Positions 3,231 to 25,409 of a DNA stretch of 25,409 nucleotides are shown here, one piece after another (positions within the stretch are counted from its first letter, which is position 1; the number at the start of each line of letters is the position of its first letter). The notes beneath the pieces were generated by a model, which saw nothing but the letters and a program-made list of their open reading frames with translations, was not told where the DNA came from and did no database searches. The stretch spans positions 1-25,409 of the IMG/VR virus record IMGVR_UViG_3300025432_000047; one strand, given 5' to 3'. This stretch comes from a virus. Taxonomy: Duplodnaviria; Caudoviricetes. A program made the position numbers and the translations under genes.

Positions 3231-4513
3231 CTTCGCAAACCGTTGGCCTCTCGTGGATTCAAACTGCCGCTGAAAATGTAGCGTATCAATGGCTTGAGCA
3301 ACTAGCTCCGTTTAATACGCCATTAGGCACCGGCACTCCTACAACTCCGGCTGGGCACACCGCGCAAACGTATCACAACGCGGGGCAACTCGCCGTGACC
3401 AATTACCTCAACAGTGTGTCACCGTGGGGTAATATGCAGCGGATTCAGGTACTTCCCGACGGCACGATAACTACTCGGTACGGCGAACGCTGTTATGATG
3501 ATTCTCCATCAGGCGTTTTAGATTATGGAAACGCGATGTGGTATCTCCCGGCATATTGGTACTGGACGTACCACAAGCAAACGACTGACGATGTCGCTAC
3601 TTATAGATGGTTTATGTCGCCTACTGGCTCTCCAAATGATGTAATAAATCAGGGTAGTTTTCCAGCAGATGTTGATACAGGTACGCTGCCAAATTGGACG
3701 AGTTGGCCATATACGCCAACGTGGAAGTTACACCCGGCATATATCCGCAATGGGATAAACGAACCGTGGATTGCACTTGGAACGTATGAGGGGTATCAGC
3801 AGACCATCAATGGTGTAAGCCAGTTAACATCGCAAACAGGCGTAGTACCGACTGGCTCTCAGACCATTACGCAGTTTAGAACATTAGCAAAAAGTATTAA
3901 CTTAAACCTAAACTGGGGGATACAAGATTATCTCGCAACAACCGCGGTTCAACTGCCTTACCTAATAGAATACGGCGGCTTTAACTCTCAGCTTTTGTTG
4001 GGTGGGGGCTATTCGAACGTCGGCAGCATAACGGCTACAGGCAACACAGCGTCAAGCGGCAATACATCGGTTGGCACGTCAAACAACTACTTAACCCCGG
4101 TGAGCTTTCATGGCTTAGAAAATCTGTATGGTAACCAGTACAAATTCTTAGACGGCCTTAACTTACAAGGCGGAAATACGCCATGGATAGCAGACCATAA
4201 CTTTGCGGTAAACACGTTTAGCGGAACGTACAACAACACGACATTCTCGCTTCCGACGATTAACGGGGCGGTTATCTCGGATATCTATGTAACATCGCAA
4301 TATGACTATGGTTTTTTGCCATCTGCTGTGGCAGGCACTTCGACAACAAAACTCTGTGATGTCTATGGATATACCAGTAATGCAAGCGGACTCTTAGCCT
4401 ATGGGGGGCCATATACTTACTCCATCAACGGTGGGGTGTTCGGGCTCGTCGAGTATCCGTACACCGAGAGCACACTAGCGGCGGGCGCACGTTTAATGTT
4501 TATACCACAATAA
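3227..4513 (+). CDS. Receptor-binding / tail fibre protein with a C-type-lectin (Mtd/FGE-like) fold
   Basis: Motifs KLHPAY.RNG, GTYEG, YLIEYGGFNSQ, GLENLYGN..KFLDG and C-terminal GG.Y......GVF..........GARL are characteristic of CLec-fold phage adhesins that are often DGR targets. AAGGAG RBS upstream. Confidence 0.7.
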   Translation: MTSQTVGLSWIQTAAENVAYQWLEQLAPFNTPLGTGTPTTPAGHTAQTYHNAGQLAVTNYLNSVSPWGNMQRIQVLPDGTITTRYGERCYDDSPSGVLDYGNAMWYLPAYWYWTYHKQTTDDVATYRWFMSPTGSPNDVINQGSFPADVDTGTLPNWTSWPYTPTWKLHPAYIRNGINEPWIALGTYEGYQQTINGVSQLTSQTGVVPTGSQTITQFRTLAKSINLNLNWGIQDYLATTAVQLPYLIEYGGFNSQLLLGGGYSNVGSITATGNTASSGNTSVGTSNNYLTPVSFHGLENLYGNQYKFLDGLNLQGGNTPWIADHNFAVNTFSGTYNNTTFSLPTINGAVISDIYVTSQYDYGFLPSAVAGTSTTKLCDVYGYTSNASGLLAYGGPYTYSINGGVFGLVEYPYTESTLAAGARLMFIPQ

Positions 4514-5859
4514 TGACCAGAAAACGCCCGTCGTACCCCCTAAAGTTTATGGATATAGGAAGCACAGGCCCCGCCGTCGGGGTAGTTTCGGGCAGCAGTA
4601 CAGTGAACTATACATGGCCGAACGGAACGAACTATTCGTGGGTACGTAACGGCGTGACGCAAACATTTCCATGCAATGAAAATTATTTGGAATATCTAGC
4701 ACAGAACAATTGGAATGTGACTATGGGGCTTGACCCGTATCAATCGGCATGTGCAATCGTCGATACATCCGAAGATCTCGCCACCACTGCATTAAAGAGT
4801 AGTCACGGTCGCGCAGGCGTAGCCGATTATACGCTGTTAGACCAGTGGTATGAGTGCTATATCGCACCCCTCGAAGATTGGGGCATCGGTTGGCGGCTAT
4901 ACCCCACAGCATCCTCATATTCATGTGATATTCCGTGGTACACTGGTGTAGGGGGTAGAGATTATAACGGGTTGGTACAATGGAATACTCCGGCTACTGA
5001 TGCTGAAGCAGATCTGAGGGGCTGGAGTGAAGACCTTACAAATAGACCACTAAATCCCGCGGGAAACCCGATATGTCGTTCCTTTGAATCGCTCTTTGGA
5101 AATCTTGTTGATTATATCGAAACTAATTGTAGCAAGAACTTTATTGAGTTCGGCGATGAGTTTCAATACACCAACCAAGCCCGATTTGTGGCCGGGGCAA
5201 CAAGCATTTGGTATCAGGATTCCGTTGGCGGGTATCCGATGTCCGGTGAGTTCGGCTACCGAACGCAGTACCCAACGTGGCCCGGAGCGATGGGTGGCAC
5301 AACAGTCGATTGTGAGGTTTATAATCCGGCATACACCGGCAACCCCGTTACCGACTCCGCGAACGGCGTTCATTTCCAAACTGACTTAGAACGCTTACAG
5401 ATGATTGACTCTATACAATTCGAGTGTTATACCATAGGTGCGTTTCAAGGAACACTCCGACTACAAGCCGAAGTCGCCGGTTATGTAGTCGGCGGACAAC
5501 TCCCCGCTAATTTTCCTATGTGTCAAAATTACGACACACTTCAAAACATTAATTCAGACGGAACCGAACACTCATACGCCGGTGAGGTGTGGTGGGTTCC
5601 GGCAGGCGTAGGCGAACCGAATAACCGTCACTGGTGGGAAACGATGGCTTCGGTACAAGACATGAACCTACTGCGAGAAAAACGAATATCGTGGGGGCTA
5701 CCTGGCGCGTATGATGCGGTCAGTTGGATGCAAACCGGCAGTATGTGGCCATGGAACGCATCGGCCTATGACATGCCATGGTGGCTTTCGCAGGCGGATC
5801 AACTGAGCGTTACGGACGCGGTTTCCGCAGCAAACATAAATGCGAGGATGGTTGCGTGA
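4513..5859 (+). CDS. Acidic, aromatic-rich protein, possible TIM-barrel glycoside-hydrolase-like virion enzyme
   Basis: 448 aa, TAATG overlap. Alternating strand/helix pattern; IEFGDE and IQFECY echo Glu motifs in two other proteins of this window. Confidence 0.45.
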   Translation: MTRKRPSYPLKFMDIGSTGPAVGVVSGSSTVNYTWPNGTNYSWVRNGVTQTFPCNENYLEYLAQNNWNVTMGLDPYQSACAIVDTSEDLATTALKSSHGRAGVADYTLLDQWYECYIAPLEDWGIGWRLYPTASSYSCDIPWYTGVGGRDYNGLVQWNTPATDAEADLRGWSEDLTNRPLNPAGNPICRSFESLFGNLVDYIETNCSKNFIEFGDEFQYTNQARFVAGATSIWYQDSVGGYPMSGEFGYRTQYPTWPGAMGGTTVDCEVYNPAYTGNPVTDSANGVHFQTDLERLQMIDSIQFECYTIGAFQGTLRLQAEVAGYVVGGQLPANFPMCQNYDTLQNINSDGTEHSYAGEVWWVPAGVGEPNNRHWWETMASVQDMNLLREKRISWGLPGAYDAVSWMQTGSMWPWNASAYDMPWWLSQADQLSVTDAVSAANINARMVA

Positions 5860-10629: not shown

Positions 10630-12930
10630 GTGGCTGGTTCGACTATTGGTTCGGCAGTAATCAACCTAAAAGGCAACTCATCAGGTTTCCTAAGCGACTT
10701 AGAGTCTGCCATATCCGGCGCCAAGAGTAAAATCTCTGGCATGGGCAACGATATGGCAAGCGGTCTTTCAGGAGTTGGCTCTGTGATGACTGCTGGAATC
10801 ACGCTTCCTATCGTCGCTATGGGTGCGTTTGCCGTGAAGAGTTTTGAGGATATCAATACCGCACAGGACCAGCTTATCGGAAAGACTAATGTAACTGGTG
10901 CAGCCGCGCAACAAATGAGGCAGTCATTTAATAATGTATTTGGCAATACCCCCGAAAGTGCTTCCGATGTTGTATCCGCCATGACCGCCGTCCATGACAA
11001 GCTTGGACTCACCGGAACGGCATTGGAGCAAACATCAACACAAGCACTCGACTTGTCGCGCATACTAGGTACTGACGTTACTAGTACTGTCAGTGGTGTG
11101 ACAAAATTATTCCAAGCGTTTAGCGTACCCACGAAGGATATGAGTGCAGATATGGACCAGCTATACACCGTCAGCACTCATTCTGGTGTGGCCCTTACCG
11201 ATTTAACAACCGCCGTGTCTAAAGTGAGTGCAGTAGCCAAACCAGCGGGGTTATCAATGCAGCAGACAGAGGCAGCAGTTGGCGCTTTTGCTACCTCTGG
11301 CTTACCGGCACGTCAATCAGCATCGTTGCTTACTACAGCTATCGGTGACTTTACAAAAGCCGGTATTCCTGCGAGTAAAGCACTTCAGGATATCGCAAAC
11401 GGCAACGCGACAGCGGCAGAAAAACAGGCGATTCTCGGTAAGGGGTCAGCAGCAAGTATAGCGACGTGGGATAAGTTAACCGGGTCATTGAGCAAGGCGA
11501 AAGGTGGTTACAATGATATGACAAACGCCATTGACCACTCTAAAGGCTCCATCGCTTCAGAAGCACAATCTACTATGACACTCAGCCAAAAGTTTGATGA
11601 GCTCAAAAACAAGGCTGAAGTAGCGTTTGCTCCGTTGGGTGGTGTGATTGTAAATATTTTAATGAACCTGGTAACAGCAGCAACGCCGCTTGTTTCAATC
11701 CTTACTAAAGTCTTAAGTGTTTTCTCCGATATGCCCGCGCCGATTCAAATGGTGGTCGTCGTTTTGGGTGGTATCCTTGCTGCTATCGGGCCTATCTTAA
11801 TGATACTACCGCAGCTTGTCGAGGGCTTTGGCATGCTTCAAACTGCCTTTGCGTTTGTAAGTGGCGGAGGTATAGCAGAAGCTTTTGGAGGTATCGCGTC
11901 AACCATCACTGAAACGGTTATACCAGCGGCAATGGAAGGTGCGACGGCGTTTGCGGCGATGGTACTCCCATTATTACCAATAATCCTTATAGTCGCGGCT
12001 ATTGGCATCGGCCTTTACCTTTTATACACTTACTTTAAACCCTTCCACGATGCTGTGAATGAGGTCGTAGGCTGGGTTAAAGAGCTTGTAGGCGACCTAG
12101 CTTCCGGCAACTTTGGGAAGTTCGGCGCTGACTTTGCTGCTGGGATTCACACAGCAATAAATGACCTTATAAACTTTGACTGGGGCGGACTCGGGAATAA
12201 AATAAAAATAGGAATCGAAACCGCGCTTGCTACCTTTGGGACGTGGCTGTGGGGTCTCATACAACCGTTGCCTATGAAACTATGGAGTGCGTACATTGGC
12301 ATATGGGCGCAGATAGGGACATGGTTATGGAGTCTCATACAACCATTGCCTCAAAAGTTATGGAGTGCGTTACAAAGTGCAATAGGTACGTTTGGAGCAT
12401 GGCTATGGGGTCTAATATCTCCAATACCAGGTGAACTCGGAAGCGGTATTGAATCAGCGGTCTCAGGCTTTGGTGCGTGGTTAATGAGCGCAGCATCAGG
12501 ATTCTTCGGAGGCTTGCCGGGCAAGATACAGGGCGCTATCTCAGGTTTTGGAGACTGGCTTATAAGTGCTGCGCAAGGCTTTGCCACGTGGCTATCCAAT
12601 GCAGTCCAGAACGCGATTAAACAACTCCCAGGCGGCAGTCAGGCGTTATCTGCAGGAGGCACAGTCGCGAGTGCTGCTGGTGGCGTAGTAAACACCGTTA
12701 AATCACTACAAACAGGCGGCACAATCACCTCTAGTGGGCTATTCAACCTCCACGCTGGCGAAGCAGTAATACCGCCTGAGAATACTACGGATATGGGTGG
12801 AAACTACACCTTTACAGTCAACTTCAACAACGCCACGATTCAGTCGCAGGCGCAAGCGGAGACGTTTAGCAGGATTATGGCGTACCAAGCAACTTCTTTA
12901 ATGCGTAGACAAGGGCTTTCAAGAGGTTAG
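10630..12930 (+). CDS. Tail tape measure protein
   Basis: GTG start with AAGGAG. 766 aa, Ala/Gly-rich helical; GSVMTAGITLPIVA N-terminal motif, hydrophobic middle, Trp-periodic repeats and C-terminal LQTGG.I...G...LHAGEAVIP. Confidence 0.93.
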   Translation: MAGSTIGSAVINLKGNSSGFLSDLESAISGAKSKISGMGNDMASGLSGVGSVMTAGITLPIVAMGAFAVKSFEDINTAQDQLIGKTNVTGAAAQQMRQSFNNVFGNTPESASDVVSAMTAVHDKLGLTGTALEQTSTQALDLSRILGTDVTSTVSGVTKLFQAFSVPTKDMSADMDQLYTVSTHSGVALTDLTTAVSKVSAVAKPAGLSMQQTEAAVGAFATSGLPARQSASLLTTAIGDFTKAGIPASKALQDIANGNATAAEKQAILGKGSAASIATWDKLTGSLSKAKGGYNDMTNAIDHSKGSIASEAQSTMTLSQKFDELKNKAEVAFAPLGGVIVNILMNLVTAATPLVSILTKVLSVFSDMPAPIQMVVVVLGGILAAIGPILMILPQLVEGFGMLQTAFAFVSGGGIAEAFGGIASTITETVIPAAMEGATAFAAMVLPLLPIILIVAAIGIGLYLLYTYFKPFHDAVNEVVGWVKELVGDLASGNFGKFGADFAAGIHTAINDLINFDWGGLGNKIKIGIETALATFGTWLWGLIQPLPMKLWSAYIGIWAQIGTWLWSLIQPLPQKLWSALQSAIGTFGAWLWGLISPIPGELGSGIESAVSGFGAWLMSAASGFFGGLPGKIQGAISGFGDWLISAAQGFATWLSNAVQNAIKQLPGGSQALSAGGTVASAAGGVVNTVKSLQTGGTITSSGLFNLHAGEAVIPPENTTDMGGNYTFTVNFNNATIQSQAQAETFSRIMAYQATSLMRRQGLSRG
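12235..12600 (+). repeat. 26-aa (78-bp) Trp-periodic repeats in the TMP
   Basis: FGTWLWGLIQPLPMKLWSAYIGIWAQ / IGTWLWSLIQPLPQKLWSALQSAIGT / FGAWLWGLISPIPGELGSGIESAVSG / FGAWLMSAASGFFGGLPGKIQGAISG / FGDWL. Confidence 0.85.
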
Positions 12931-13618: not shown

Positions 13619-16600
13619 ATGACCATCCAAACATATGTAGGCACGTTTACATCACCATTGAGCACAGGCCAACAAGCTATCACAGGCATCCCGTTTCAGC
13701 CAACCGCTGTTATTATCTGGACTGCGGCATCGAGTAGTGGGTGGGCTACTGCCGACCTTTTCGCAATGGGATTCTGTGCAGGAACCGGAAGTACGTCAGG
13801 TATTACTCAGGGGTACGTTACGTGTGGGTCAGCTAATGGAAGTAGCGGGAGCGTTGGCTACCGTCGATACAACACCAGCGCCGCTATAGGGTTGGTGGGA
13901 AGTACTGGAACGCTCTACATTGAGGCGACGCTTTATTCAATGGACTCCGGCGGTTTCACCCTTAATTGGGGAACCGTTAGCTCCGGCACACAGATATGTA
14001 ATTATATGGCAATCGGGGGGACAACCAATGCTAAAGTAGTGGGGTGGCAGAATAACTTAGGCACAGTTCCGTTTACACAATCAGTAGGTGTCGGCTTCAC
14101 GCCTGACTGTGTTATACATATCGGAGCATCGACATCTGGTGGTTCTCCTTCCAACGTAAGTACTGGTGCTGTATTTGCAACGGGTGCAATGGACAGCGCG
14201 GGGAATCAATGGGGGGAGTGCGTATATGCACAAGGAGCCCAAGCCACATCCAATACAGGGCGAGTTCAACTCACCAGTGCGTGCTTACTAAACGAGCCCT
14301 TCGCAGTGAACCCGACAATGGTGGGTTCGTACTCTGCAATGGGGGCCAATGGTTTCACTATAAATTGGACTTCGATGCCTTCATACCAACTTGAGTGGAT
14401 TAGTCTCTGTTTAGAAGGCGGCGGCGAATATCAAGTTGGTAATTGGGCTAAGTCAACGGCGGCAGCCCCCGTATCTGATACGGTAAGTGTAAGTATGTTC
14501 CCTATGGGTGTGCTGCTAACGACGGACAGTTATACGGTGTCAGCAAGTGGACAAACGGGCCTCCGCACGATGGTTGGGGCATCAAATTCATTCGATAACG
14601 GCTGCGCGGGTGTTACTGATAAACACAACGTGGCGACCACCGTAGCAGACCGATTTCAATACGCTACGGCCTCGATTAACGTCAGCAATAACGACACCGA
14701 AACAAACGAAGCAGTAGCGACGGTAAGCGCGGCGACTTCCATAAGTCCGGCCATAGATTCTAACCAGGGTATTGCCTTTGATGGGACATATTATTACGCA
14801 TTTAACACGGGGTCGATATACAAATATAATTCATCGTGGGGGTACGTTGCGTCAAACACTAACGTAGGTACACAGGCAGGTGTTAATCATCTTGGTGATG
14901 GTGATTATTACAACGACGGAACGCACCAGCGACTTTACGTTGTAGGAATGAACAGCGGTACGTGCTCACCCCCTGGGTGGAGTGATAGCCGTATAGCAGT
15001 TTTCAATGCGTCAGACCTCAGCTTTGTTGAATATATAGATATATCGGCCCAGAACTTTGATGCTGGGGGTGGGTGCGCCGTTGACACCGATGATAATGTA
15101 CTCTGGGTAACTTCGTGGTGCGGCGGCGGCACGATTTATAAATACAAATTATCCGATATGATCAACGGTACGGCGACCTATCTAGGTTCAATAACCCCAA
15201 GCCCTGCAACGTCATACAGTCAAGGGATTGCATATTATAGTGGAAACTTATACTTCTCATATAGCACGGCCTCCTTTGTAGGGGGTGGCGTTACACGGAT
15301 GAACACCTCCGGCACAAACCAGTTGACGGTAGTTCCGTATTTCACCTTTGGAGAGGCGGAGGGCCTAACGGTTAATGCTACGGGTATTCATTTAGATATA
15401 GGCTCCGCTACGACGAACATTTATACGTATCCCCTTACCGTCAGCGGTTCATTTACCGCACGATGGACAACCAATAACAGCGTAGCAACACAAATCTGTT
15501 TTGTTGCTATGGGTATCCCTCCAAACATTGCTGAGGCAGCCTCGGTTGACGGTAAGCTCCTTGCGGACAACTCAGCATCTATTGCGTTAGACACATCAGC
15601 CTCGGTTGACGGTAAGCTCCTCGCGGACATCACCCCATCCATCGCATTTGATATTTCCACTTCCCAAGAGTGCGTCGTAATTCCTTACATAAGCTCTGCA
15701 ACAACGGGGATAATTGGCGGGGGCATTTTTACGTCCGTTGGAGTTGACGGCGAATTACTTGGCGATATTAATGCGAGTTCAATACTTTCTACCGTTACAC
15801 AGCCGTTAGATGCCATTGTTATTGCGGATATTGGTGTTGTCGTTTATTTCGCTAATAACAATATACTAAACACGGCGGTTGACGGCTTCATTGGTGGTGA
15901 CGTAACGGCAACGATGGAGCAGACTGTTGTTACTGGCAAAGGGACGGGTAAAACATACTGGAACGGCATTGACCTGACGCAAGCCCCATATTATGCGTAT
16001 TTAACGAGCAATACGAAATATGATTGGCTAGATGGCATTACGTTTATACAAGTGCCTACCGGACAAAATACGATGGCGAACACGTCAGCGTATCCTTCTA
16101 AGCTGCTTTTAACATTAGAGTATAAACTAAAGCCGTTGGCTAATATCGGCACTCTTACCGGCCCATCACAGACACGTCAGGAACTCCAGGCAGCATGGAA
16201 CGCCCTTACTGCACTTACCGATCCGATACTACAGGGGCAAGGTCAGCTTATACTTGCTGAGTTTCCAGGCAGCTATTGGATAGCAAAACGGCTCCAGACG
16301 GCCCCTAATGATGAGGCGGATTATCCTGCGATGGCAGATGTTCAATTAGAGTTTGCCGTCACAGGTATGGCGTATTCTGTTACGGAGTCATACGCAGCCG
16401 AGTCAATAGCCTCCTCATATACGACGCTTACCGTTACATCAAATGGTGACTCACTAGCATATCCACTCTGGACAATCCATTGTGGGGGTAACGGATACGG
16501 GGGTACTATCACCATCACCAACACTACGACAGGAGAAGCGGTTTCATGGACGGGGTGGGTAAAGTTTGGTGACATGCTTGGGTATATCATGGATGCGGAA

Positions 16601-19156
16601 TATGGGGAACCAGGCACAATGATACAAACATGGGGCTCCGTTACGGGCGCGTGGCCGCATCTCGTTCCGGGAGATAATATCATAGAAGTTAAACAATCAC
16701 CAGCTACAACGGGCTCCGGCCCCATAAATGGCATATTTGAAGTTCAGTGGCGTGATCGTTTCTCTAGGGGACAGTTGGTTATTCCGCCAATAGTGCCCCC
16801 AATCGTTAATATATTGCCAACGGACGTTGTGATTAATGGTGAGGATGCCGCTACAGATGGGTCATTTATCTTTTATGGTCAACTGATTGATATAAATTTA
16901 AATCCCGTACGATCTGCCAAAGTAGTCCTTTACGCATCGACTAATGACATATCATGGAGTGTCGTAGAAACAACCACTACGGATGAGAGTGGGAATTACA
17001 CGTTTAATGCAACTGGTGTTTATGATAATCTCACTCATTGGGAAGTGCGGTACGGGGGTAGTCCGCTATACTTTAGCTCGACAAGTTTAAGAATAATCAC
17101 GCTTCCGAGAGCAAAACGGGTTAATACAGAGATTTCAATAACGGTTGATACTTCACAAGCTCCTGCCTACACGTTTAGCGGTACGGTTGTAGAATCGGCA
17201 CATTCGAGTATTGTTGTCAACAACATTCTGGATTTGGTTGCTCTCCAGATATTAGTCCCCTGGAGTACGTGGACGGACGTGCCTGGCCTCGCTCTTGGTA
17301 GCACAGATAATTCCGGCGATTATACTTTTACGTACAATATAGGCCCTGTATTGAGTAATACAGATCAGACGGGTTACAGGGCTAAGTTCTTAGGCAACCT
17401 AGAGTTCAATCCAAGCGTTACTCCAGAAGAGATTTCGGTTACTGCCGCCACTCAGCCAGTAGCATGGCAACCTGAACTTCCGGTTCCGATAACATACTTA
17501 ATAGGACTCGCACCGCAGGCAGTTAATGCAGGGGTGCTTAATTACTTCGCTGCGGTTGGCTATACAGGGGTAATCCTCGTCGCAGAGGCGAACGCGCTGA
17601 CGGCTAGAAAAACGTATGCCACAGAACTTGCTATAATCAATAGTTTTGGCATGAGTGCCGTATTAGATATTGAAATGGTAGCGAACTCCGGCGGGATTAC
17701 GTGGAAAGAAGTAGCTAATGATACTGAATGTTCCACGTTTTATTCATGGTTTGCAGAGCTTGCCGCTGCCGGATGGCCTACCGTCTCATCAGAACTTGGT
17801 GATACTGGATACCCATATTACTCAGATAACGCTCGACGTTATTTCTCAGGTTTTATAAATTACAATATCCCGTACGCTAGCACATGGTCAGTAGTTAGCG
17901 TAGCTGCGGCGGGGGGTCAAAATACGCTGCAAGTAAGTTCCGGTGCGGGTTTTGTTAATGGAATGTCAATCGCCGTTGGTCAAGGGGGAGCCGACAGTGA
18001 AAAGGCAGTTATAGTCTCTGGTGCTGGTGTAGCCGGAGCCTCAACGCTTGTATTATCTGCTGGCCTGCAACACGCCCACCCTATAGGTGATACGGTCATG
18101 GCATGGCCGTACTGGGATGTGGATGTTAATACATCAGAAAACCTTTTTGAGTTCTACTGGCACTCTGCGGTAGGTTATATTGAGATGGGAACAACGTATG
18201 CTACACAGATAGGCATACCGTGCGGCATCTTAGCGTACCCGTATATAGACCCGACAGGTGGCTTGGATGTGTTTGAGAACTCAGTAAACAACCAGACCCC
18301 TACCTATCAATCACTGCTAGATTGGTCGTACGCAAACGGCATTGGGCTTACTACCTTTACATTTTGGCTTGATCCAAACTTTGACCAAATACTCAACAAT
18401 GGCGCTGACCCCATATACCTGCTTTTGTTCTACCTGACCCAGGGGGCTGACTCGGTTGTAACAAACTTGCAGCAGACGTATCCGGCGGCAGGAACCGAAG
18501 CACTTACGAATATTACTATGCTTATGCCGGAGTTGACGCTTAACGTCATTGAGGAGGCTCCTGGAGTATTTGTATTCTCAGGAACACTTGCTGAACTTCT
18601 AAGTGGCAATCCAATCGCAGGAGCGGACATTTATATTCAAATATCAAGCAATGGAGGCATTACGTGGACGGATTTGTCGGTAGTGCCATCCGTTACTAAT
18701 GCTACCGGCACGTATGCAGGATGGACAGAAGAGTTTGCCGCAGGCACGTACAATATCAGGGTTCTCTCCGGCGGTTCGAGCACCTATCTAAACACCTATG
18801 CCCCGTACAGCCATTACGGTTTACAGCTCGTAGTGCCCCCAACAGGAACCACTATTACAGGGCTTACCTTAAACGCTTCGAGTGCTTCAGTGGCATTAAA
18901 CGCAACGGATACATTTACTGCCGTTCTTACGAGCGGTGCAACGGGACTCTCAGGCAAATATATTACCATCTACCACTACGATTCGTCAGGGACGTATAAC
19001 TACGATGTAACTGGTGAAACTGACCCCACAGGCACTATTATGTTCGTTGCAACGGAATCCATCTCTGATACGTTCCAATACTTCGCTTACTTCGCTGGCG
19101 ATGCGACGTACGCAGCCGCGACAAGCAATGAAGTCGATGTTACGGTAGGGGACTAA
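13619..19156 (+). CDS. Giant multidomain tail-tip protein: 3 beta repeats + beta-propeller + Dit domain + Ig-like repeats + TIM-barrel-like domain
   Basis: 1845 aa in the Dit position between TMP and Tal. Dit-like motifs TYWNGIDL, LILAEFPGSYW.A, NGDSLAYP.WTI, WPHLVPGDNIIEV and VQWRDRF lie at about 15947-16762. Confidence 0.8.
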   Translation: MTIQTYVGTFTSPLSTGQQAITGIPFQPTAVIIWTAASSSGWATADLFAMGFCAGTGSTSGITQGYVTCGSANGSSGSVGYRRYNTSAAIGLVGSTGTLYIEATLYSMDSGGFTLNWGTVSSGTQICNYMAIGGTTNAKVVGWQNNLGTVPFTQSVGVGFTPDCVIHIGASTSGGSPSNVSTGAVFATGAMDSAGNQWGECVYAQGAQATSNTGRVQLTSACLLNEPFAVNPTMVGSYSAMGANGFTINWTSMPSYQLEWISLCLEGGGEYQVGNWAKSTAAAPVSDTVSVSMFPMGVLLTTDSYTVSASGQTGLRTMVGASNSFDNGCAGVTDKHNVATTVADRFQYATASINVSNNDTETNEAVATVSAATSISPAIDSNQGIAFDGTYYYAFNTGSIYKYNSSWGYVASNTNVGTQAGVNHLGDGDYYNDGTHQRLYVVGMNSGTCSPPGWSDSRIAVFNASDLSFVEYIDISAQNFDAGGGCAVDTDDNVLWVTSWCGGGTIYKYKLSDMINGTATYLGSITPSPATSYSQGIAYYSGNLYFSYSTASFVGGGVTRMNTSGTNQLTVVPYFTFGEAEGLTVNATGIHLDIGSATTNIYTYPLTVSGSFTARWTTNNSVATQICFVAMGIPPNIAEAASVDGKLLADNSASIALDTSASVDGKLLADITPSIAFDISTSQECVVIPYISSATTGIIGGGIFTSVGVDGELLGDINASSILSTVTQPLDAIVIADIGVVVYFANNNILNTAVDGFIGGDVTATMEQTVVTGKGTGKTYWNGIDLTQAPYYAYLTSNTKYDWLDGITFIQVPTGQNTMANTSAYPSKLLLTLEYKLKPLANIGTLTGPSQTRQELQAAWNALTALTDPILQGQGQLILAEFPGSYWIAKRLQTAPNDEADYPAMADVQLEFAVTGMAYSVTESYAAESIASSYTTLTVTSNGDSLAYPLWTIHCGGNGYGGTITITNTTTGEAVSWTGWVKFGDMLGYIMDAEYGEPGTMIQTWGSVTGAWPHLVPGDNIIEVKQSPATTGSGPINGIFEVQWRDRFSRGQLVIPPIVPPIVNILPTDVVINGEDAATDGSFIFYGQLIDINLNPVRSAKVVLYASTNDISWSVVETTTTDESGNYTFNATGVYDNLTHWEVRYGGSPLYFSSTSLRIITLPRAKRVNTEISITVDTSQAPAYTFSGTVVESAHSSIVVNNILDLVALQILVPWSTWTDVPGLALGSTDNSGDYTFTYNIGPVLSNTDQTGYRAKFLGNLEFNPSVTPEEISVTAATQPVAWQPELPVPITYLIGLAPQAVNAGVLNYFAAVGYTGVILVAEANALTARKTYATELAIINSFGMSAVLDIEMVANSGGITWKEVANDTECSTFYSWFAELAAAGWPTVSSELGDTGYPYYSDNARRYFSGFINYNIPYASTWSVVSVAAAGGQNTLQVSSGAGFVNGMSIAVGQGGADSEKAVIVSGAGVAGASTLVLSAGLQHAHPIGDTVMAWPYWDVDVNTSENLFEFYWHSAVGYIEMGTTYATQIGIPCGILAYPYIDPTGGLDVFENSVNNQTPTYQSLLDWSYANGIGLTTFTFWLDPNFDQILNNGADPIYLLLFYLTQGADSVVTNLQQTYPAAGTEALTNITMLMPELTLNVIEEAPGVFVFSGTLAELLSGNPIAGADIYIQISSNGGITWTDLSVVPSVTNATGTYAGWTEEFAAGTYNIRVLSGGSSTYLNTYAPYSHYGLQLVVPPTGTTITGLTLNASSASVALNATDTFTAVLTSGATGLSGKYITIYHYDSSGTYNYDVTGETDPTGTIMFVATESISDTFQYFAYFAGDATYAAATSNEVDVTVGD
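15537..15910 (+). repeat. 60-bp (20-aa) coding tandem repeat with degenerate further copies
   Basis: cagcctcggttgacggtaagctcct(t/c)gcggaca at 15537 and 15597 (ASVDGKLLAD twice), then GVDGELLGD, PLDAIVIAD and AVDGFIGGD. Confidence 0.85.
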
Positions 19157-19162
19157 ATTTAA

Positions 19163-21556
19163 ATGGACTACGTACCCGACTATACATTTGAACTCAGGCA
19201 GCGGAACACTTCGGGGGGTTATGACTTAGTGCAACAACTGCCTGACCGCATGCAGCCATATCTCACTCGCCAACTGGGAACGGCGGATAACATCGCTTTT
19301 AACCTTCCGTTAGAAAGCCAAGCGGCGCAGTACATCATCAACACGCCATCAGACCTTGAAATCTGGTGGTACGGACGGGATATGAAACTCAAGCAGGTCT
19401 TTGTTATCGTTCAAAAGGAACGCTATAAAGACTACGGTGCTACGAGCATGACGGGCGGATCTGCTCGATTAGGAAGTGGCAGCGGTGCAAACCTCCTTAT
19501 TAGCTCAGACGGGCCTGAGCATTATTTGACCAGATACTATACGCAAGATTATTCTGTAACGCAACGATTAGTCTCTGATATTGTTGATGACCTTTGTGTT
19601 GAGTTATGGCATGACGGCTTAATATCTGCCGCCTACGTTGATCCATCGCTTGACCAGTTTATTGACATAGATGTGAGCAATGAAAACATATTCGCAGCCG
19701 TTGGCAACATTATAAACCAGCTCCCACCAAGCTATATGCAGGTCTTGTTTAACCCAAGCAACCCTACGGAGCGCACGTTATACCTACTGCCGATGCCTGA
19801 CAGTATCCCAACTCCTAAGGGCATAGGCACTACCTCAGCGGTTATACCACAAGCTAAACCGCAAATTACGAGCAAGAGCAAACCACTCACCCTTAAAACA
19901 CCCGTACGAGTGCGCTCTGGAAAGTTAAAAGATACTGTAGGTGCTACGCCTCCAGCGGTTATAAATAACGCTTTGGAGGCAAAGGAAAATGCTTCGACTC
20001 CGTTAATGAAGTTTGATAAGAACTTAACGGGCATAGACGTTCTTGAGGATACAAGCAGCGTTGTTACAAGAGTGTATTGCCGAGGTTCCGGCTCAAGTCC
20101 TAGCGAATTGAGCTTTAGTACGCCACCATTTTATCCTGCGGCACAGGAACTTACGCTTTTAAAAACAGATGGTGGGTATGCTTACTTTAGGCTTCCTTTA
20201 GTGAATGGCTTTGACTGTGCTATTTATGCAGGCTGGACAGGTGATGGCGAGGCGTTGCCGAGTAATATGGGCATCGGAATGAATAAATGGAACCCGTTTA
20301 GTACCTCTTATGACTCAAGCGCAACGACTAAGTTTTTTGTAGCGAACGATAAGACCGCAGCGGCGCAACTCTTCTATATGCCAGCACCGTTTCATGTCTA
20401 TTCTGCGTCGCTCCTCTTAAAGCGCGTCACCCCTCAAACTGTTACATGGCCTAAGATGCCGCTGTTTCAAGTGGGGTTATACACGGCCAGGGAGGCCCCC
20501 ACTACTACCGGCCTACAACAAGCAGGAGTTCCAACGCCTCAAAACGGGCCGTTAGAGTGGTGCTATGGTAACTTAATGAGTTTAACAACAACGCCGACAT
20601 GGTATGAGTTTCCGATGCAGGCAACAAAGTGGGGCCCTGGATGGTATGCGATTGTGCTACAACCATATTCTCCTACTGATTCTTGGAATAAAGTAAACCC
20701 TAAAACGTCCGCAAATGATTATTTACAATGGTGTAGCAGCTCTGACCAACCGACAGCTTCTAAGACCTTTGGAGAAGTAACCAATGGGGGAGTCAATCCT
20801 ACGGCGTGGTGGATGAATAAAACAAATCCGTATGATTGGCAAACGGCATTTAAACTCGCTGTATGGGACTATGACATGACCACAAAATTTATACAAGGGC
20901 CGGATGCGCGGACGGTAAAGACCAAAATAGCAAATTATCAGGCAGATAATGCGTGGTTTATTAACTATCAACACGGCCCTTATTTGATGGCGTGGGATGC
21001 CGAAGGGGAGTATAAAGCACCGTTCTATGGCACGTTTAAAGATGATTCGGTCATATCACAAAATTCGCTGTGGCTAGAAGGCGCTCAGTACTTATACGCG
21101 AACTCACAACCCACGATGACCACCAGCTTAGGGGCCGTTGACTTATACGAGATCGACCCGACGGTTAATTGGAATGATGAAATTACGATTGGCGGCACGA
21201 TCAGGGTAGTTGATCCTGATTTAAACTTTGATGAGGAGTTTATCGTAACCAAAATAAGTAAAATGGATATGACCAAACCGCATCAGTTTGATACGCTTGA
21301 GTTGAATAACATCCACATGACCGTTCAACAATACACCGCAATGTTAGCGGGTTCTGCGTCAAAAACACGGAAATATCAAAGCGGCCAAACGGTTGAGGCG
21401 ATTCATGCTGGTAATGGGGGGTTCTCATCAGGCTCTATGTATGAGGATTACTTTGAGATACGCAATGAAACTGACTTAGTACACTCAATAAAACTCTCGG
21501 CTTTTAGTGCTGTAGATGGGTTTTACGTCACTGTTGATGGAAACGCTGTATGGTAA
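19163..21556 (+). CDS. Tal / baseplate hub protein (Prophage_tail-like), apparently missing the end of its C-terminal domain
   Basis: Motifs KNLTGIDVLEDTSSVVTRVYCRG and AVDL.......ITIGGTIRVVDPDL......VTKISK; follows the Dit. Ends abruptly at VTVDGNAVW. Confidence 0.8.
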   Translation: MDYVPDYTFELRQRNTSGGYDLVQQLPDRMQPYLTRQLGTADNIAFNLPLESQAAQYIINTPSDLEIWWYGRDMKLKQVFVIVQKERYKDYGATSMTGGSARLGSGSGANLLISSDGPEHYLTRYYTQDYSVTQRLVSDIVDDLCVELWHDGLISAAYVDPSLDQFIDIDVSNENIFAAVGNIINQLPPSYMQVLFNPSNPTERTLYLLPMPDSIPTPKGIGTTSAVIPQAKPQITSKSKPLTLKTPVRVRSGKLKDTVGATPPAVINNALEAKENASTPLMKFDKNLTGIDVLEDTSSVVTRVYCRGSGSSPSELSFSTPPFYPAAQELTLLKTDGGYAYFRLPLVNGFDCAIYAGWTGDGEALPSNMGIGMNKWNPFSTSYDSSATTKFFVANDKTAAAQLFYMPAPFHVYSASLLLKRVTPQTVTWPKMPLFQVGLYTAREAPTTTGLQQAGVPTPQNGPLEWCYGNLMSLTTTPTWYEFPMQATKWGPGWYAIVLQPYSPTDSWNKVNPKTSANDYLQWCSSSDQPTASKTFGEVTNGGVNPTAWWMNKTNPYDWQTAFKLAVWDYDMTTKFIQGPDARTVKTKIANYQADNAWFINYQHGPYLMAWDAEGEYKAPFYGTFKDDSVISQNSLWLEGAQYLYANSQPTMTTSLGAVDLYEIDPTVNWNDEITIGGTIRVVDPDLNFDEEFIVTKISKMDMTKPHQFDTLELNNIHMTVQQYTAMLAGSASKTRKYQSGQTVEAIHAGNGGFSSGSMYEDYFEIRNETDLVHSIKLSAFSAVDGFYVTVDGNAVW

Positions 21557-21577
21557 GTTACTAGGAGAAAGATAAAA

Positions 21578-22570
21578 ATGCCAAAACTGCCAGGAGAAAC
21601 GCAAGGACACTTTGAGATGCGCGTATTCGGGCACAAGTTAGGCTGCGATGTGCAAAAGAGTATTGATGAGACTAATCGGCGGCTAGGAATTGGCGAGATC
21701 ACTGAATTTGTACCTACTGTCTCCTTAAAGCAACTCCGTGCTGCCGCCTCCGTTGACTTATCCAAGTATGACTCTCCGGTATCAGATCAAGACGGTATAG
21801 GCGACTGCTGTGCTGAGGCGAGTATTAATTGTTTTGAATGGCTACAAAAAAATATACAGGGTAGTTTTTTCGCTGGCTCCCGAATGGCTCAGTATTATTG
21901 GTGTCTAGTGCATGACGGATCGAATAGTAGCGGCTGCGCTGATACAGGCACAAACACCTCAACGGCAGATTGGGTTATGACAAATAACGGTGTAGCGCAC
22001 AGCTCCCTTTGGCCGTTTAGTGAAAATTGTAATACCGCCCCAACGTCTAACGTTGTATCAGATGCGGCAGAAAATAAACAAACGGCCTCGAATGTGGTTA
22101 GCGGTTCGACTAGCGGCGATGGCGCTACGACGGTGGCTAACTGTAAAGCAACGTTAGCTTCTGGTTCCGTGTTTTATGCTGCATTTGATTTTTGGGAGAA
22201 TTATTACGACGCAGAGACGAACGGCGGAAAATTCCCTGCGCCGAGCGGTAGCCCTGTTGGGGGGCATTGTATGGAGTTTTGCGGCTATGACGATGCTGGA
22301 TCAAACCTAGGCGGCTCAACAGGGTATTTTAAGTGTAAGAACAGTTGGGGAACCAGTACTGGTGATAATGGCTATTATTACATGCCATATAACATCGCTA
22401 CCGGAATCGACTCTGGTGGCTCTAACTCTCAAATAAGCGCCGCTTATGTTATTACCGGAGAAAGTGAGATAGTAACGCCAACACCACCAAGCCCAACGCC
22501 AACACCAACCGGCGGCACGCAGATAACATACACGATTAGGCCGCGAGAGTATCGAGGAGGGTACAGATAG
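21578..22570 (+). CDS. Papain-family (C1A) cysteine protease with PT linker and C-terminal tag
   Basis: SVDL...SPVSDQDGIGDCCA (Gln71, Cys77), GGHCMEFCGYDD (His230), KNSWGT..GDNGYYYMPY (Asn255). No signal peptide. AGGAG RBS. Confidence 0.9.
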   Translation: MPKLPGETQGHFEMRVFGHKLGCDVQKSIDETNRRLGIGEITEFVPTVSLKQLRAAASVDLSKYDSPVSDQDGIGDCCAEASINCFEWLQKNIQGSFFAGSRMAQYYWCLVHDGSNSSGCADTGTNTSTADWVMTNNGVAHSSLWPFSENCNTAPTSNVVSDAAENKQTASNVVSGSTSGDGATTVANCKATLASGSVFYAAFDFWENYYDAETNGGKFPAPSGSPVGGHCMEFCGYDDAGSNLGGSTGYFKCKNSWGTSTGDNGYYYMPYNIATGIDSGGSNSQISAAYVITGESEIVTPTPPSPTPTPTGGTQITYTIRPREYRGGYR

Positions 22571-24427
22571 TCGAATGGCAACACCGTATCTTTATTACAA
22601 GTTTGATAAGGACTCTACTACTGTCACCAATTATGGCAGCGGAGGCTCAGGATACAACGGGACTGCGACGAGGGCACAATATGCTACTGACTCTGCTGGT
22701 TATCCAGTATGGGGGCCCATGACTGACAATAACGATAGGATAACTGTACCAGGCGGTTGCAGTAACCCTTATCAGCATACGTGGGAGATTGGGTTAAACA
22801 TTAATCATTGGTGGCCTGGAAACGGCGATGATGGCGGCGTTGCACAAGGTAACGACGGTAAGCTATGGGCACTCGCAAACGACTTGTTTTATGGCTATTT
22901 TCACGGAGTTTGCGGCTTTGGAGCTAACTGCTCCGGCGGCGCTCTTGTAGGAACTAGTAACGTCTATAATTTCACTGTTGAAGCGCAGGGCAGTCCTAGC
23001 AGTCTCGATGTTGACCTTTGGCTCGGTGTAGGGGATAACAAACCCGTTCAGATCGGAAACGATGGGCTAGGAACAGACGATCCAGGGGCATTATACCTGG
23101 CGTTCAATTACAACTTTCAGTTAAACACAAATTATTATCTTCAGATTACAGTAGATTGCGATGGCGGCCCAGGAGGGAACGATTATTACATTAGTAACTG
23201 CGCCCCTGGCTGTGCTGACTCATCAGTGCAAGGTTTTCCAAGCGGCTGTTACTTCTACGTTTGGCGTGAATATAACTCAATAATAGACCTCTCTGGTGGC
23301 GGCGATTGGGCTACGGATGTCGTACTGTGGAAAGGCGGAACGCCGAGCCCAACACCAACCCCAACGCCGACACCAACGCCATCATCAGGCATACCGATAA
23401 CATACTCAATAATACCGAGAGAATATCAAGGTGGGTTTAGGTGAGATAGATAATGACAATGGTTTTTCAAATCTGTGCCACGTCATTTAGCAATCCGGCA
23501 GGAGCGAAGAGCGCCGGCTATATTGACTGTGTAGTCGAGGCGGGTTCTGGCTGTGTACAGCCCCCCGGTGGTTTTATAACCGCCTGTCACGGACAAGGCA
23601 TGGGTGCCCTCATGCAAAACAGTGATTCGGGCTCTGGTGGGTGCAGCGATACATCGTATCTTTCTGGACTGGCCAGTGCAGGATTAGACGCGGTAGGTGG
23701 TGAGTCTGAGGGCGGCGCTGAGATTGATGCTATTATGCAATATTTGCCGTTCATGAACTATGGTGGTGAAGGCACAGGTGGCACTACCGGCAACAACTGT
23801 GTATGGTCTTCCTGTGGTGGTAATGACGGCGCATCGGTCGGCAAGTATGGGTGCTCAACGTTTTTAGAGACGTATACTACCGACTCAATGCTCAGTGCTT
23901 CGGAAATAGGCCAAGAGGCCGGGATGAATTACGACGCAGGTTGCTTTGAGGTCGGAATACTTGTCGGATCATGGAGCTACGGTGATTATGGGGCCGGGGT
24001 AAGTACGTATCAAGAGATGGTTGATGAGATAGCATCTCAAAGTAAAAAACCGTGTGTCGGCTTCCAATGGTGGTATGTGGAAGGTGACGGCAGCGGTGCG
24101 CCTTCTAATGATTCTGGCGGCGTTATGGCAGGGCTAATGAGTGCCTACGGCAAGAACATGACGCCGATTTATGACCGTAAAAAAGGAGTAACCCCTACGC
24201 CACCAAGCCCAAGCCCAAGTCCTAGCCCAAGCCCTGTATTCCAGAAGGGCACGTACTTTCAAGGGTACATAAATCAAATTGATATAGCCCCTGCGCTCGC
24301 CGCCGCACATAACGGCCAACCTACGCGAGGGGTGCATGTTATTGACTTTTGGCCTGTAACAGGGAGCAGTTCTACCGTCGGCATAACATATACCGCCAGG
24401 CCGCGAGAACTCCAGAGCGGGTACAGA
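22523..24427 (+). repeat. Three dispersed copies of a 45-bp/15-aa C-terminal motif (starting at 22523, 23397 and 24383)
   Basis: ITYTIRPREYRGGYR, ITYSIIPREYQGGFR and ITYTARPRELQSGYR; 8 of 15 residues invariant, and all begin ATAACATA. Confidence 0.92.
22575..23444 (+). CDS. LamG/concanavalin-A-like jelly-roll protein with PT linker and C-terminal tag
   Basis: N-terminal LYYKFDK.STTVTNYGSGG..YNGT and C-terminal VWREYNSII resemble LamG-like domain ends. GAGGAGG upstream. Confidence 0.6.
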   Translation: MATPYLYYKFDKDSTTVTNYGSGGSGYNGTATRAQYATDSAGYPVWGPMTDNNDRITVPGGCSNPYQHTWEIGLNINHWWPGNGDDGGVAQGNDGKLWALANDLFYGYFHGVCGFGANCSGGALVGTSNVYNFTVEAQGSPSSLDVDLWLGVGDNKPVQIGNDGLGTDDPGALYLAFNYNFQLNTNYYLQITVDCDGGPGGNDYYISNCAPGCADSSVQGFPSGCYFYVWREYNSIIDLSGGGDWATDVVLWKGGTPSPTPTPTPTPTPSSGIPITYSIIPREYQGGFR

Positions 24428-24442
24428 CAATTCCAACAATAA
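23453..24442 (+). CDS. TIM-barrel glycoside-hydrolase-like domain + PS linker + 67-aa C-terminal module ending in the shared tag
   Basis: Colinear motif matches to 17489-18483, followed by TPTPPSPSPSPSPSP and a beta-rich tail. AGGTGA upstream. Confidence 0.55.
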   Translation: MTMVFQICATSFSNPAGAKSAGYIDCVVEAGSGCVQPPGGFITACHGQGMGALMQNSDSGSGGCSDTSYLSGLASAGLDAVGGESEGGAEIDAIMQYLPFMNYGGEGTGGTTGNNCVWSSCGGNDGASVGKYGCSTFLETYTTDSMLSASEIGQEAGMNYDAGCFEVGILVGSWSYGDYGAGVSTYQEMVDEIASQSKKPCVGFQWWYVEGDGSGAPSNDSGGVMAGLMSAYGKNMTPIYDRKKGVTPTPPSPSPSPSPSPVFQKGTYFQGYINQIDIAPALAAAHNGQPTRGVHVIDFWPVTGSSSTVGITYTARPRELQSGYRQFQQ

Positions 24443-24486
24443 AAAAAGAGAATTAAATTAAAAACAAAGATGAGGAACCATGAAAA

Positions 24487-25161
24487 GTGCCAACAAGAAA
24501 TATTGCAGAAGTTGAAGAAGCAATAATCAAACGACTCGACATCCATAGAAAAGAGCTTACCACTATGGAAGAGTGCACAAAACAATGCCAAATCTCCATC
24601 GGACAGCACGACGAACGGCTCAGGGCGTATGAAGAGAACAGTAAGCGACAGAACGGGACTCTTGACAAGCTAAGTGAGGATATAGACTCAGTAGCGCACG
24701 GGGTAAATGACATCGTCAAGAAAGTTGACGCAATGGACACAAGCATAGCAAACCGCGTGAATGAGATAGAACGCAACGGAATCAAACGTGATGCCACGAG
24801 TGATATAGCCGTGAGAGAACGGGCGGATACTCGCGAGGTGCATATACGAGCAGAAGTGGATAACTTAACGAAAGAAATTGCCGAAGTAAAGCGCTTGGGT
24901 GGAGCACGAATGGCGGAGATAGAGCGGATCGCGCTGAAAAGCGCCGCAGAACATGAACAGTGTGCCATTGACCGGATAGCGGCAGCGAGAGAAGAATCTG
25001 GGGATGAAATCGCCGCACTTAGGGTAGAGTTCATTAAGCAACAGTCGGAAGCGATGAGCAATATTCAATGGAAAATCATAGCTGCGCTTTCGTCACTTGC
25101 GTTCCTGTTTATACTGGTCTTTATCTCATACTCGTTTCATGTGTTTGGAGGCTTACCATGA
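24487..25161 (+). CDS. Coiled-coil protein with a single C-terminal transmembrane helix (XhlA/holin-associated-like)
   Basis: GTG start, charged heptad-rich body, RL..YE....RQNGTL.KL motif and hydrophobic IIAALSSLAFLFILVFISY. Confidence 0.55.
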   Translation: MPTRNIAEVEEAIIKRLDIHRKELTTMEECTKQCQISIGQHDERLRAYEENSKRQNGTLDKLSEDIDSVAHGVNDIVKKVDAMDTSIANRVNEIERNGIKRDATSDIAVRERADTREVHIRAEVDNLTKEIAEVKRLGGARMAEIERIALKSAAEHEQCAIDRIAAAREESGDEIAALRVEFIKQQSEAMSNIQWKIIAALSSLAFLFILVFISYSFHVFGGLP

Positions 25162-25409
25162 CAGAAGAAAACCACGACGCTATAATACGCCACGAGTGCG
25201 CGATAGGCGAACTGCGCGAGCAGGGTGAAGTTATCCTTAAAAGATTAGATGAACAGGACGCGAATGACGTAGCTATCAGGGATGAACTCATAAAAAAGAT
25301 AGAGGATAACAAATCCAAATTTGGTGATGCGATGTGGGCTATTGCTATGCTACTATTAGGTGGCTTTGTAAGTGGCTTTATTTTTGCTATTCTTTACATG
25401 ATAAAATAG
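25158..25409 (+). CDS. Small coiled-coil protein with a C-terminal transmembrane helix (XhlA/holin-like), 83 aa
   Basis: Likely start is ATG 25158 (ATGA overlap, GGAGG upstream) rather than 25068. TM segment WAIAMLLLGGFVSGFIFAILY. Confidence 0.6.
   Translation: MTEENHDAIIRHECAIGELREQGEVILKRLDEQDANDVAIRDELIKKIEDNKSKFGDAMWAIAMLLLGGFVSGFIFAILYMIK

Follow-up and report, generated by a model that had tools for sequence, protein, structure and literature searches.

A C-terminal domain of a phage tail-tip hub that appears to be divided between the hub and its cargo genes

Virus record IMGVR_UViG_3300025432_000047 of IMG/VR (Duplodnaviria; Caudoviricetes) was analyzed over a window of 25,409 nucleotides (nt), the tail region of a siphovirus-type genome with a tape measure gene, a gene for a large tail protein, a tail-tip hub gene, three cargo genes and holin-like genes. 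The question raised by this locus is why the hub stops within its C-terminal domain, and what becomes of the rest of that domain, which seems to reappear at the end of the third cargo protein. A preliminary description made from the DNA alone had suggested either that the domain is rebuilt in trans from the products of two genes or that the cargo cassette between the halves is excisable. Our comparison with related proteins and loci makes rebuilding in trans the best reading of the sequences.

Two halves of one hub domain

The hub (Tal, Prophage_tail; 797 amino acids (aa), 19163-21556, + strand) matches PF06605 with 48.1 bits (cut-off 31.3) and TIGR01665 with 29.2 bits (cut-off 26.75), and it lies behind the tape measure and distal tail genes, as expected for a PF06605 hub/Tal protein. 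A profile alignment with gp21 of Enterococcus phage phiEf11 reaches hub residue 781 (E 4.6e-9). The hub ends with FYVTVDGNAVW, and its C-terminal domain is truncated. Residues from about 738 to 797 (21374-21553, + strand) make up the N part of a probable jelly-roll domain, as delimited by hub alignments and by the tiling of the N parts of relatives on Bacillota proteins. After a Pro/Ser linker, the third cargo protein (329 aa, 23453-24442, + strand) reads VFQKGTY...YRQFQQ; this long tail of 68 aa (24236-24439, + strand) comprises the middle part (about 24236-24358) and the last strand (about 24380-24424) of the hub domain. The open reading frames at 19163-21556 and 23453-24442 confirmed that the hub stops at VDGNAVW and that cargo 3 continues after its linker, and they join into the seamless frame of 863 aa (796 + 67) that had been predicted.

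A related segment of 16 residues forms the C-terminal end of all three cargos of the window. At the DNA level, the tag of cargo 1 (22520-22567, + strand) is 71% identical to the end of cargo 3 over 45 nt, and the tag of cargo 2 (23394-23441, + strand) is 73% identical to that of cargo 1 over 45 nt. Since both also match the family tail profile, the earlier proposal that they are copies of the domain's last strand holds. Gapless single contigs from two other runs span the hub and cargo arrangement (X3, corresponding to 21134-24521; X6, to 20903-25000), and the split is thus not an assembly error.

A tblastn search of named phages with a distant family hub (P0074) yielded 10 records and led to phiEf11 gp21 and to gp24 of Bacillus phage vB_BhaS-171. 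Both hold the whole C-terminal domain in one chain, as do 36 further Bacillota-type proteins (38 of 38), so that the contiguous domain named in the preliminary description does exist; as these 38 proteins were retrieved with this region, the one-chain form is to be taken as common rather than universal. The order in the Bacillota chains is N part, Gly/Ser/His-rich insert, middle part and last strand. The window tail matches the Bacillota profile at positions 28-56 with 13.6 bits (shuffle maximum 9.0). When hub end and tail were joined in silico, they matched as one domain from 14 to 56 with 20.8 bits (shuffle maximum 7.3), an alignment that spans the junction as had been anticipated. The corresponding join of hub and tail from the divergent locus L016 covers positions 5-67, and the natural pieces aligned together tile the intact Bacillota domain. 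By these alignments, the hub end and the tail of cargo 3 each make up half of a domain that tail-tip proteins of Bacillota phages hold in one piece. The spike insert of the Bacillota homologues is not present in the N part of the window hub; compared with a Tal of the phiEf11 gp21 type the insert is absent or shorter than 20 aa, and the domain is divided, so that the window does not hold a contiguous domain with a spike. In this hub family the spike is reduced to a short loop.

Further searches added little. PHROGs and Pfam hold no model for either half of the domain, the hub C-terminus, used as a profile against PDB sequences, gave a single weak row (E 0.034), and neither single-sequence IMG/VR scans with the window hub end, the tail, P0063 and P0066 nor a tblastn search of named phages with a family hub end produced matches.

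Two cut points in related loci

The search for hub homologues returned three non-self sequences among 431 candidates. P0002 and P0004 end where the window hub ends. P0003 runs past the break, and its continuation matches the tail of cargo 3 (17 of 38 residues identical, E 1e-7). In L016, a contig of 80 kb, the hub is cut as in the window and is followed by two different cargos, both of which carry the middle part and the last strand. In the preliminary description, hubs that end naturally at this place were thought to speak against a split. Such ends are found in P0002, P0004 and L016, but because the L016 cargos again carry the missing part, they support a conserved split.

In seven loci, which include near-copies (L004, L005, L007-L010 and L013), the hub keeps the middle part, lacks the last strand and is followed by three cargos, each ending in a linker and a last strand. 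With the long-tail profile, all seven full-cassette loci gave the same division: the hub covers positions 4/5-41, and each of the three cargos covers 40/43-62. The complete genome G001 has exactly one middle part and three last strands. A scan of C-termini in 11 loci found 37 of 82 above 5 bits, every one of them a hub or a cargo. Two distant hubs, L002 and L003, lack the domain. The family thus has two cut points, one behind the N part (window, P0002, P0004, L016) and one behind the middle part (P0003 and relatives). Wherever a locus was read, the piece absent from the hub forms the end of a linker-bearing cargo encoded directly downstream.

A profile search of 1.84 billion representatives used 61 columns covering the middle part and the last strand, and was therefore blind to hubs that consist of the N part only. 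It gave 31 matches: five hubs ending after the middle part, 13 cargos with a long tail, five proteins with the middle part only, and eight that were set aside (seven with many short repeated matches, and the unrelated P0073). The long-tail and middle-only proteins carry these ends on papain, TIM-barrel, lectin-like and small domains, and the tail is thus portable. No whole domain in one chain was seen among the 31 matches, for which the search profile lacked the N part, or among the family hubs examined. The 17 homologues of cargo 3 divide into six with a long tail, nine with the tag only and two with other ends; one homologous tail, in P0040, has an insertion of 30 residues in the loop before the last strand. 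Contigs of identical size, a circumstantial link, pair the short hubs P0002/P0008 with the long-tail proteins P0120/P0119 (6453 and 4465) and the middle-only proteins P0055/P0056 with the tag-only proteins P0045/P0048 (10859 and 37712). P0055 and P0056 are, judged by motifs, a small Cys-rich ribbon-like protein and a thioredoxin-like protein with the middle part as C-terminus.

On the hub tree the short hub amounts to three changes, and the long tail also amounts to three on the cargo tree, which was built without P0037 (different C-terminus) and P0041 (partial). A single clade of short hubs was rejected (p-AU 0.0035). Recombination may account for this pattern as well as repeated origin does. 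L007 has the other arrangement, yet directly behind the cassette it shares about 99% of its sequence with the window: the holin-like region at 24460-25409 and its counterpart at L007 13684-14633 (99.3% identical) follow two different hub and cargo arrangements, with a sharp module border. The proposal of a one-off cassette insertion into the window hub finds no support in view of the three tree changes and of the middle-keeping relatives that still carry three tagged cargos. The window geometry alone does resemble an insertion, and one could suppose that a recent event broke the hub and left decaying relics. This is the least probable explanation that we considered. The same cut is found in hubs only 33-53% identical to the window hub, the tails are conserved on many unrelated cargo domains, and the two L016 tails differ by an excess of synonymous changes (16 synonymous and 7 non-synonymous differing codons among 64).

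The junction repeat, excision and covalent joining

The sequence CTGTAT occurs at both break points on the + strand, once at 21546-21551, where it holds the Val codon of NAV, and once at 24234-24239 at the border of linker and tail. As had been reported, the copies lie 2688 bp apart and in frame, with the Val codon GTA in both. The accompanying caution that a match of 6 bp is weak evidence was justified: the + strand of the window contains 10 occurrences, and a shared in-frame 6-mer arises between random coding stretches in 1% (windows of five codons) to 7% (windows of ten codons) of trials. In the family alignment the hub NAV and the tail FQK share three columns, which shifts the two Val codons against each other by three codons. 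The longer hub P0079 has extra residues at that point, and the register shift alone thus does not exclude a duplication. The hub Val is common in that column of intact homologues, and the tail Val is missing in P0038. No in-frame 6-mer is common to either junction of L016. The repeat is likely coincidental.

The in-frame repeat and the match of the joined halves to one domain would suit a cassette that is excised at CTGTAT, with the cassette-free genome making a full-length hub. We regard this as very improbable. Neither a direct repeat conserved at homologous positions nor a joined form was found: the L016 junctions lack the repeat, the Val codons do not align, and the joint 21551/24240 was absent from all eight runs examined (24 listed), although contigs drop rare forms. 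There was also no whole hub among the family sequences examined and no recombinase-sized unassigned gene beside the cassette, and hubs that keep the middle part still have the cassette. Neither the excisable cassette of the preliminary description nor a meaningful junction repeat is accordingly supported.

Covalent joining after transcription, by stop read-through, RNA splicing or protein splicing, seems equally remote. The hub and cargo 1 share a frame in the window across one TAA and seven codons (21554-21580), and the papain gene of some relatives contains an intein. This frame relation is absent from L016 and L008, read-through would add the last strand and not the middle part, and no intein family matched the window hub or cargos. 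Two RNA runs (X22 and X23), which cover the stretch only in patches, contained no joint between hub and cargo.

Predicted fold and proposed docking of the cargos

In the model of the intact Bacillota domain, the flanks reach a predicted local distance difference test score (pLDDT) of 81-93 around a low-confidence insert, and the chain closes with a final strand of 13 residues. Both flanks (about residues 11-252) align together to jelly-roll sandwiches (best Z 8.4, root-mean-square deviation 2.9, 104 residues); lower-ranked matches are GOLD domains, sugar-binding domains of glycosidases and small capsids. The intact domain is likely one jelly-roll sandwich in this model, with no specific relative to be named. 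The last two strands of a jelly roll are, by the usual topology, interior strands of its two sheets. From the strand order, the donated strands would thus be inner strands, and since neither half would then be stable alone, the halves would depend on each other.

By homology to the intact domain, the hub is an acceptor without the strands that a second polypeptide carries at its terminus. We therefore consider it probable that separately made cargos attach to the tail tip by providing the beta-strands that the hub lacks, a fold complementation in trans. In solved siphophage baseplates, Tal is a trimer according to PMC12917162. A trimeric hub would present three unfinished sandwiches, each of which could tether one cargo by being completed. 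Where the hub keeps the middle part, three sockets would meet three tags; in L016, either cargo would bring everything that the hub lacks. In the window this role would fall to cargo 3, while cargos 1 and 2, which have the last strand only, would have to displace that of cargo 3 or add at the edge. Entry of cargos 1 and 2 by displacement of the last strand, with cargo 3 filling the hub, has about an even chance of being correct; the loop insertion of P0040 and the existence of middle-only proteins both fit strand displacement. Protease, lectin and glycosidase could in this way be displayed on flexible linkers against an archaeal cell envelope.

A further-reaching version is possible, but we hold it more tentatively. 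The domain may be a snap-together fold of three parts, in which the hub brings the N part, while the middle part and the last strand come from two different passengers; a trimeric tip could then hold as many as six passengers, all of them exchangeable. The cut point would slide between lineages through recombination at the Pro-rich linkers. In the window, one genome would give mixed tail tips, with cargos 1 and 2 loaded through an exchange of strands with cargo 3.

Several observations weigh against fold complementation. Of the three window cargos only cargo 3 carries the middle part, which leaves no socket for cargos 1 and 2 except through strand displacement or addition at the edge. Their tags match the family tail profile weakly (cargo 1, positions 43-60, 9.0 bits; cargo 2, positions 47-60, 6.0 bits), and by themselves the short tags give no match to the Bacillota profile; the last 30 aa of the hub match it at positions 13-21 with 3.4 bits, which is within the shuffle range. 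The long tail of cargo 3 folded without the hub at a pLDDT of 33-60, a low confidence that may reflect a thin alignment (5 of 16 rows). With a Z of 8.4, near the background of 7-8, the fold match is of middling quality, and Foldseek found no PDB entry at E 0.001 or better for the model of the intact domain. Moreover, only two independent short-hub loci, the window and L016, were seen as DNA.

The lack of an obvious socket for cargos 1 and 2 would be accounted for if the tails were anchors that bind elsewhere, be it to each other, to another tail protein or to the hub core, with the hub N part a leftover. That anchors are interchangeable is indicated by L017-L022, where the same catalytic domains bear immunoglobulin (Ig)-like C-terminal domains after a like linker. 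However, the cargos carry exactly what the neighboring hub lacks, at both cut points, and the N part is conserved in all four short hubs. We therefore judge binding elsewhere to be unlikely and retain complementation of the hub domain as the preferred explanation.

Cargo and hub genes

Cargo 1 (21578-22570, + strand) consists of a predicted papain-family (C1) cysteine protease, a Pro/Thr linker and the last-strand tag. It matches PF00112 with 35.3 bits (cut-off 20.7), and the Cys, His and Asn motifs are present. In several relatives the papain cargo contains an intein and an HNH endonuclease, the latter in L008 (L004/L005 11517-13511, L008 2580-4571, L010 2472-4448, L013 1351-3342); the intein is absent from L007, L009, L011 and the window. 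The first cargo slot of L007 (10675-11733) is taken by another protein of 352 aa without a Pfam match, which has the same linker and tag.

Cargo 2 (22575-23444, + strand) is a candidate LamG/concanavalin A-like lectin with a Pro/Thr linker and a last-strand tag. Pfam gave no match. In the ESM Atlas, the feature score was 0.88 and the 10 best family-bearing matches all belonged to the Laminin_G family or clan; the template modeling (TM) score was under 0.5 on a poor model, and the assignment is a lead only.

Cargo 3, which matches no Pfam family, is predicted from its model to be a TIM-barrel glycosidase-like protein, with a glycoside-hydrolase-like barrel (about residues 1-245) before the Pro/Ser linker and long tail. 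The AlphaFold2 model has a pLDDT mostly above 80 over residues 1-240. The best Foldseek rows are endoglucanases of glycoside hydrolase family 5 (GH5) and GH18-like proteins (E 5e-6, TM about 0.45), with epimerases matching too, and conserved Glu residues are found in the homologues. The same barrel and papain domains also occur beside terminase genes (L017 2350-5138, L018 9809-10960, L020 9887-12555, L021 2525-5249). There, a Pro/Thr linker and an Ig-like C-terminal domain replace the hub strand; G001 has both sets.

The hub of some relatives is also split near its N-terminus into two genes of 233-352 aa and 560-590 aa (L005 7860-10684, L009 3-2297, L012 1787-4191); in the window hub these two parts are fused via a Pro/Thr/Lys-rich stretch. 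At the start of the C-terminal domain, the hub motif RKYQSGQ (21368-21388) resembles the R-x-Y-Q-x-G ending of the cargo tags, with which the aligner paired it, through chance or pseudo-symmetry. Very large tail proteins with repeated lectin-like domains stand before the hub or are fused to it in L016 (293-9978, 2390 aa) and P0080 (2893 aa).

Genomic setting and host

The tape measure gene lies at 10630-12930, and the large tail protein (1845 aa, 13619-19156) directly precedes the hub. Further unassigned domains with patterns resembling alternating strands and helices, possibly hydrolase-like modules, appear without Pfam support in the tail-region proteins at 4513-5859 and 16900-18500. Among GTDB genomes we detected no relatives and no host genome. 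Two relatives encode Orc1/Cdc6 (G001, 224 bits; G002, 195 bits; cut-off 181); the window does not include the corresponding region. Because of these two genes, and because the runs stem from peat and wetland metagenomes, the host is likely an archaeon.

Comparison with known systems

If the proposed docking is correct, it explains how several enzymes or lectins can be mounted on one three-fold tail tip in place of the ancestral spike, and how cargos can be swapped between genomes without altering the hub. The domain would have been caught dividing at two points while the undivided ancestral form is still common, and one could trace how a docking system evolved. At about 60, 45 and 20 residues, the parts are small enough for tests in vitro and might serve as a natural protein tag in two or three pieces. 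The cargos would also point to envelope targets of uncultured peat archaea. A literature search, at the level of titles and abstracts and with thin coverage of subscription journals, found no description of this hub and cargo family or of the split domain. It thus appears that no hub domain has been described which combines an intact ancestor with two cut points and a possible three-part assembly.

Closest among known systems are Tal proteins of Bacillota phages such as phiEf11 gp21 and vB_BhaS-171 gp24 (PF06605, TIGR01665), which belong to the same hub family and have the same C-terminal domain as the window hub. The Bacillota Tal is one chain with a Gly/Ser/His-rich spike-like insert, whereas the window has a short loop and divides the domain between hub and cargo genes.

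Chaperone-usher pili rely on donor-strand complementation, in which one polypeptide lends a strand to the unfinished beta-sandwich of another, and the proposed docking resembles them in this respect. Pilins, however, have an Ig fold and an N-terminal donor extension, require a chaperone and an usher, and form a polymer. The window system would be of the jelly-roll type, with a C-terminal donor of one to three strands, a movable cut and no polymer; on the ten window proteins scanned, there was no Pfam match to a chaperone, usher or pilin.

A short portable peptide that mounts a separate enzyme on a tail protein is also known from the KP32 gp37/gp38 type of Klebsiella podophages, where it acts together with a branching domain (PMC13352976). 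In the excerpts of that source, the peptide is N-terminal, the branching domain is T4 gp10-like and sits on the tailspike of a bacterial podophage, and the peptide is not described as part of a split fold. The peptide of the window, in contrast, is C-terminal, homologous to the hub's own domain and associated with a siphovirus-type hub.

SpyTag/SpyCatcher, finally, is an engineered pair in which one domain was divided to give a socket and a terminal tag for any cargo. The window system would follow the same logic of socket and tag, but it is natural, presumably non-covalent, and has two alternative cut points.

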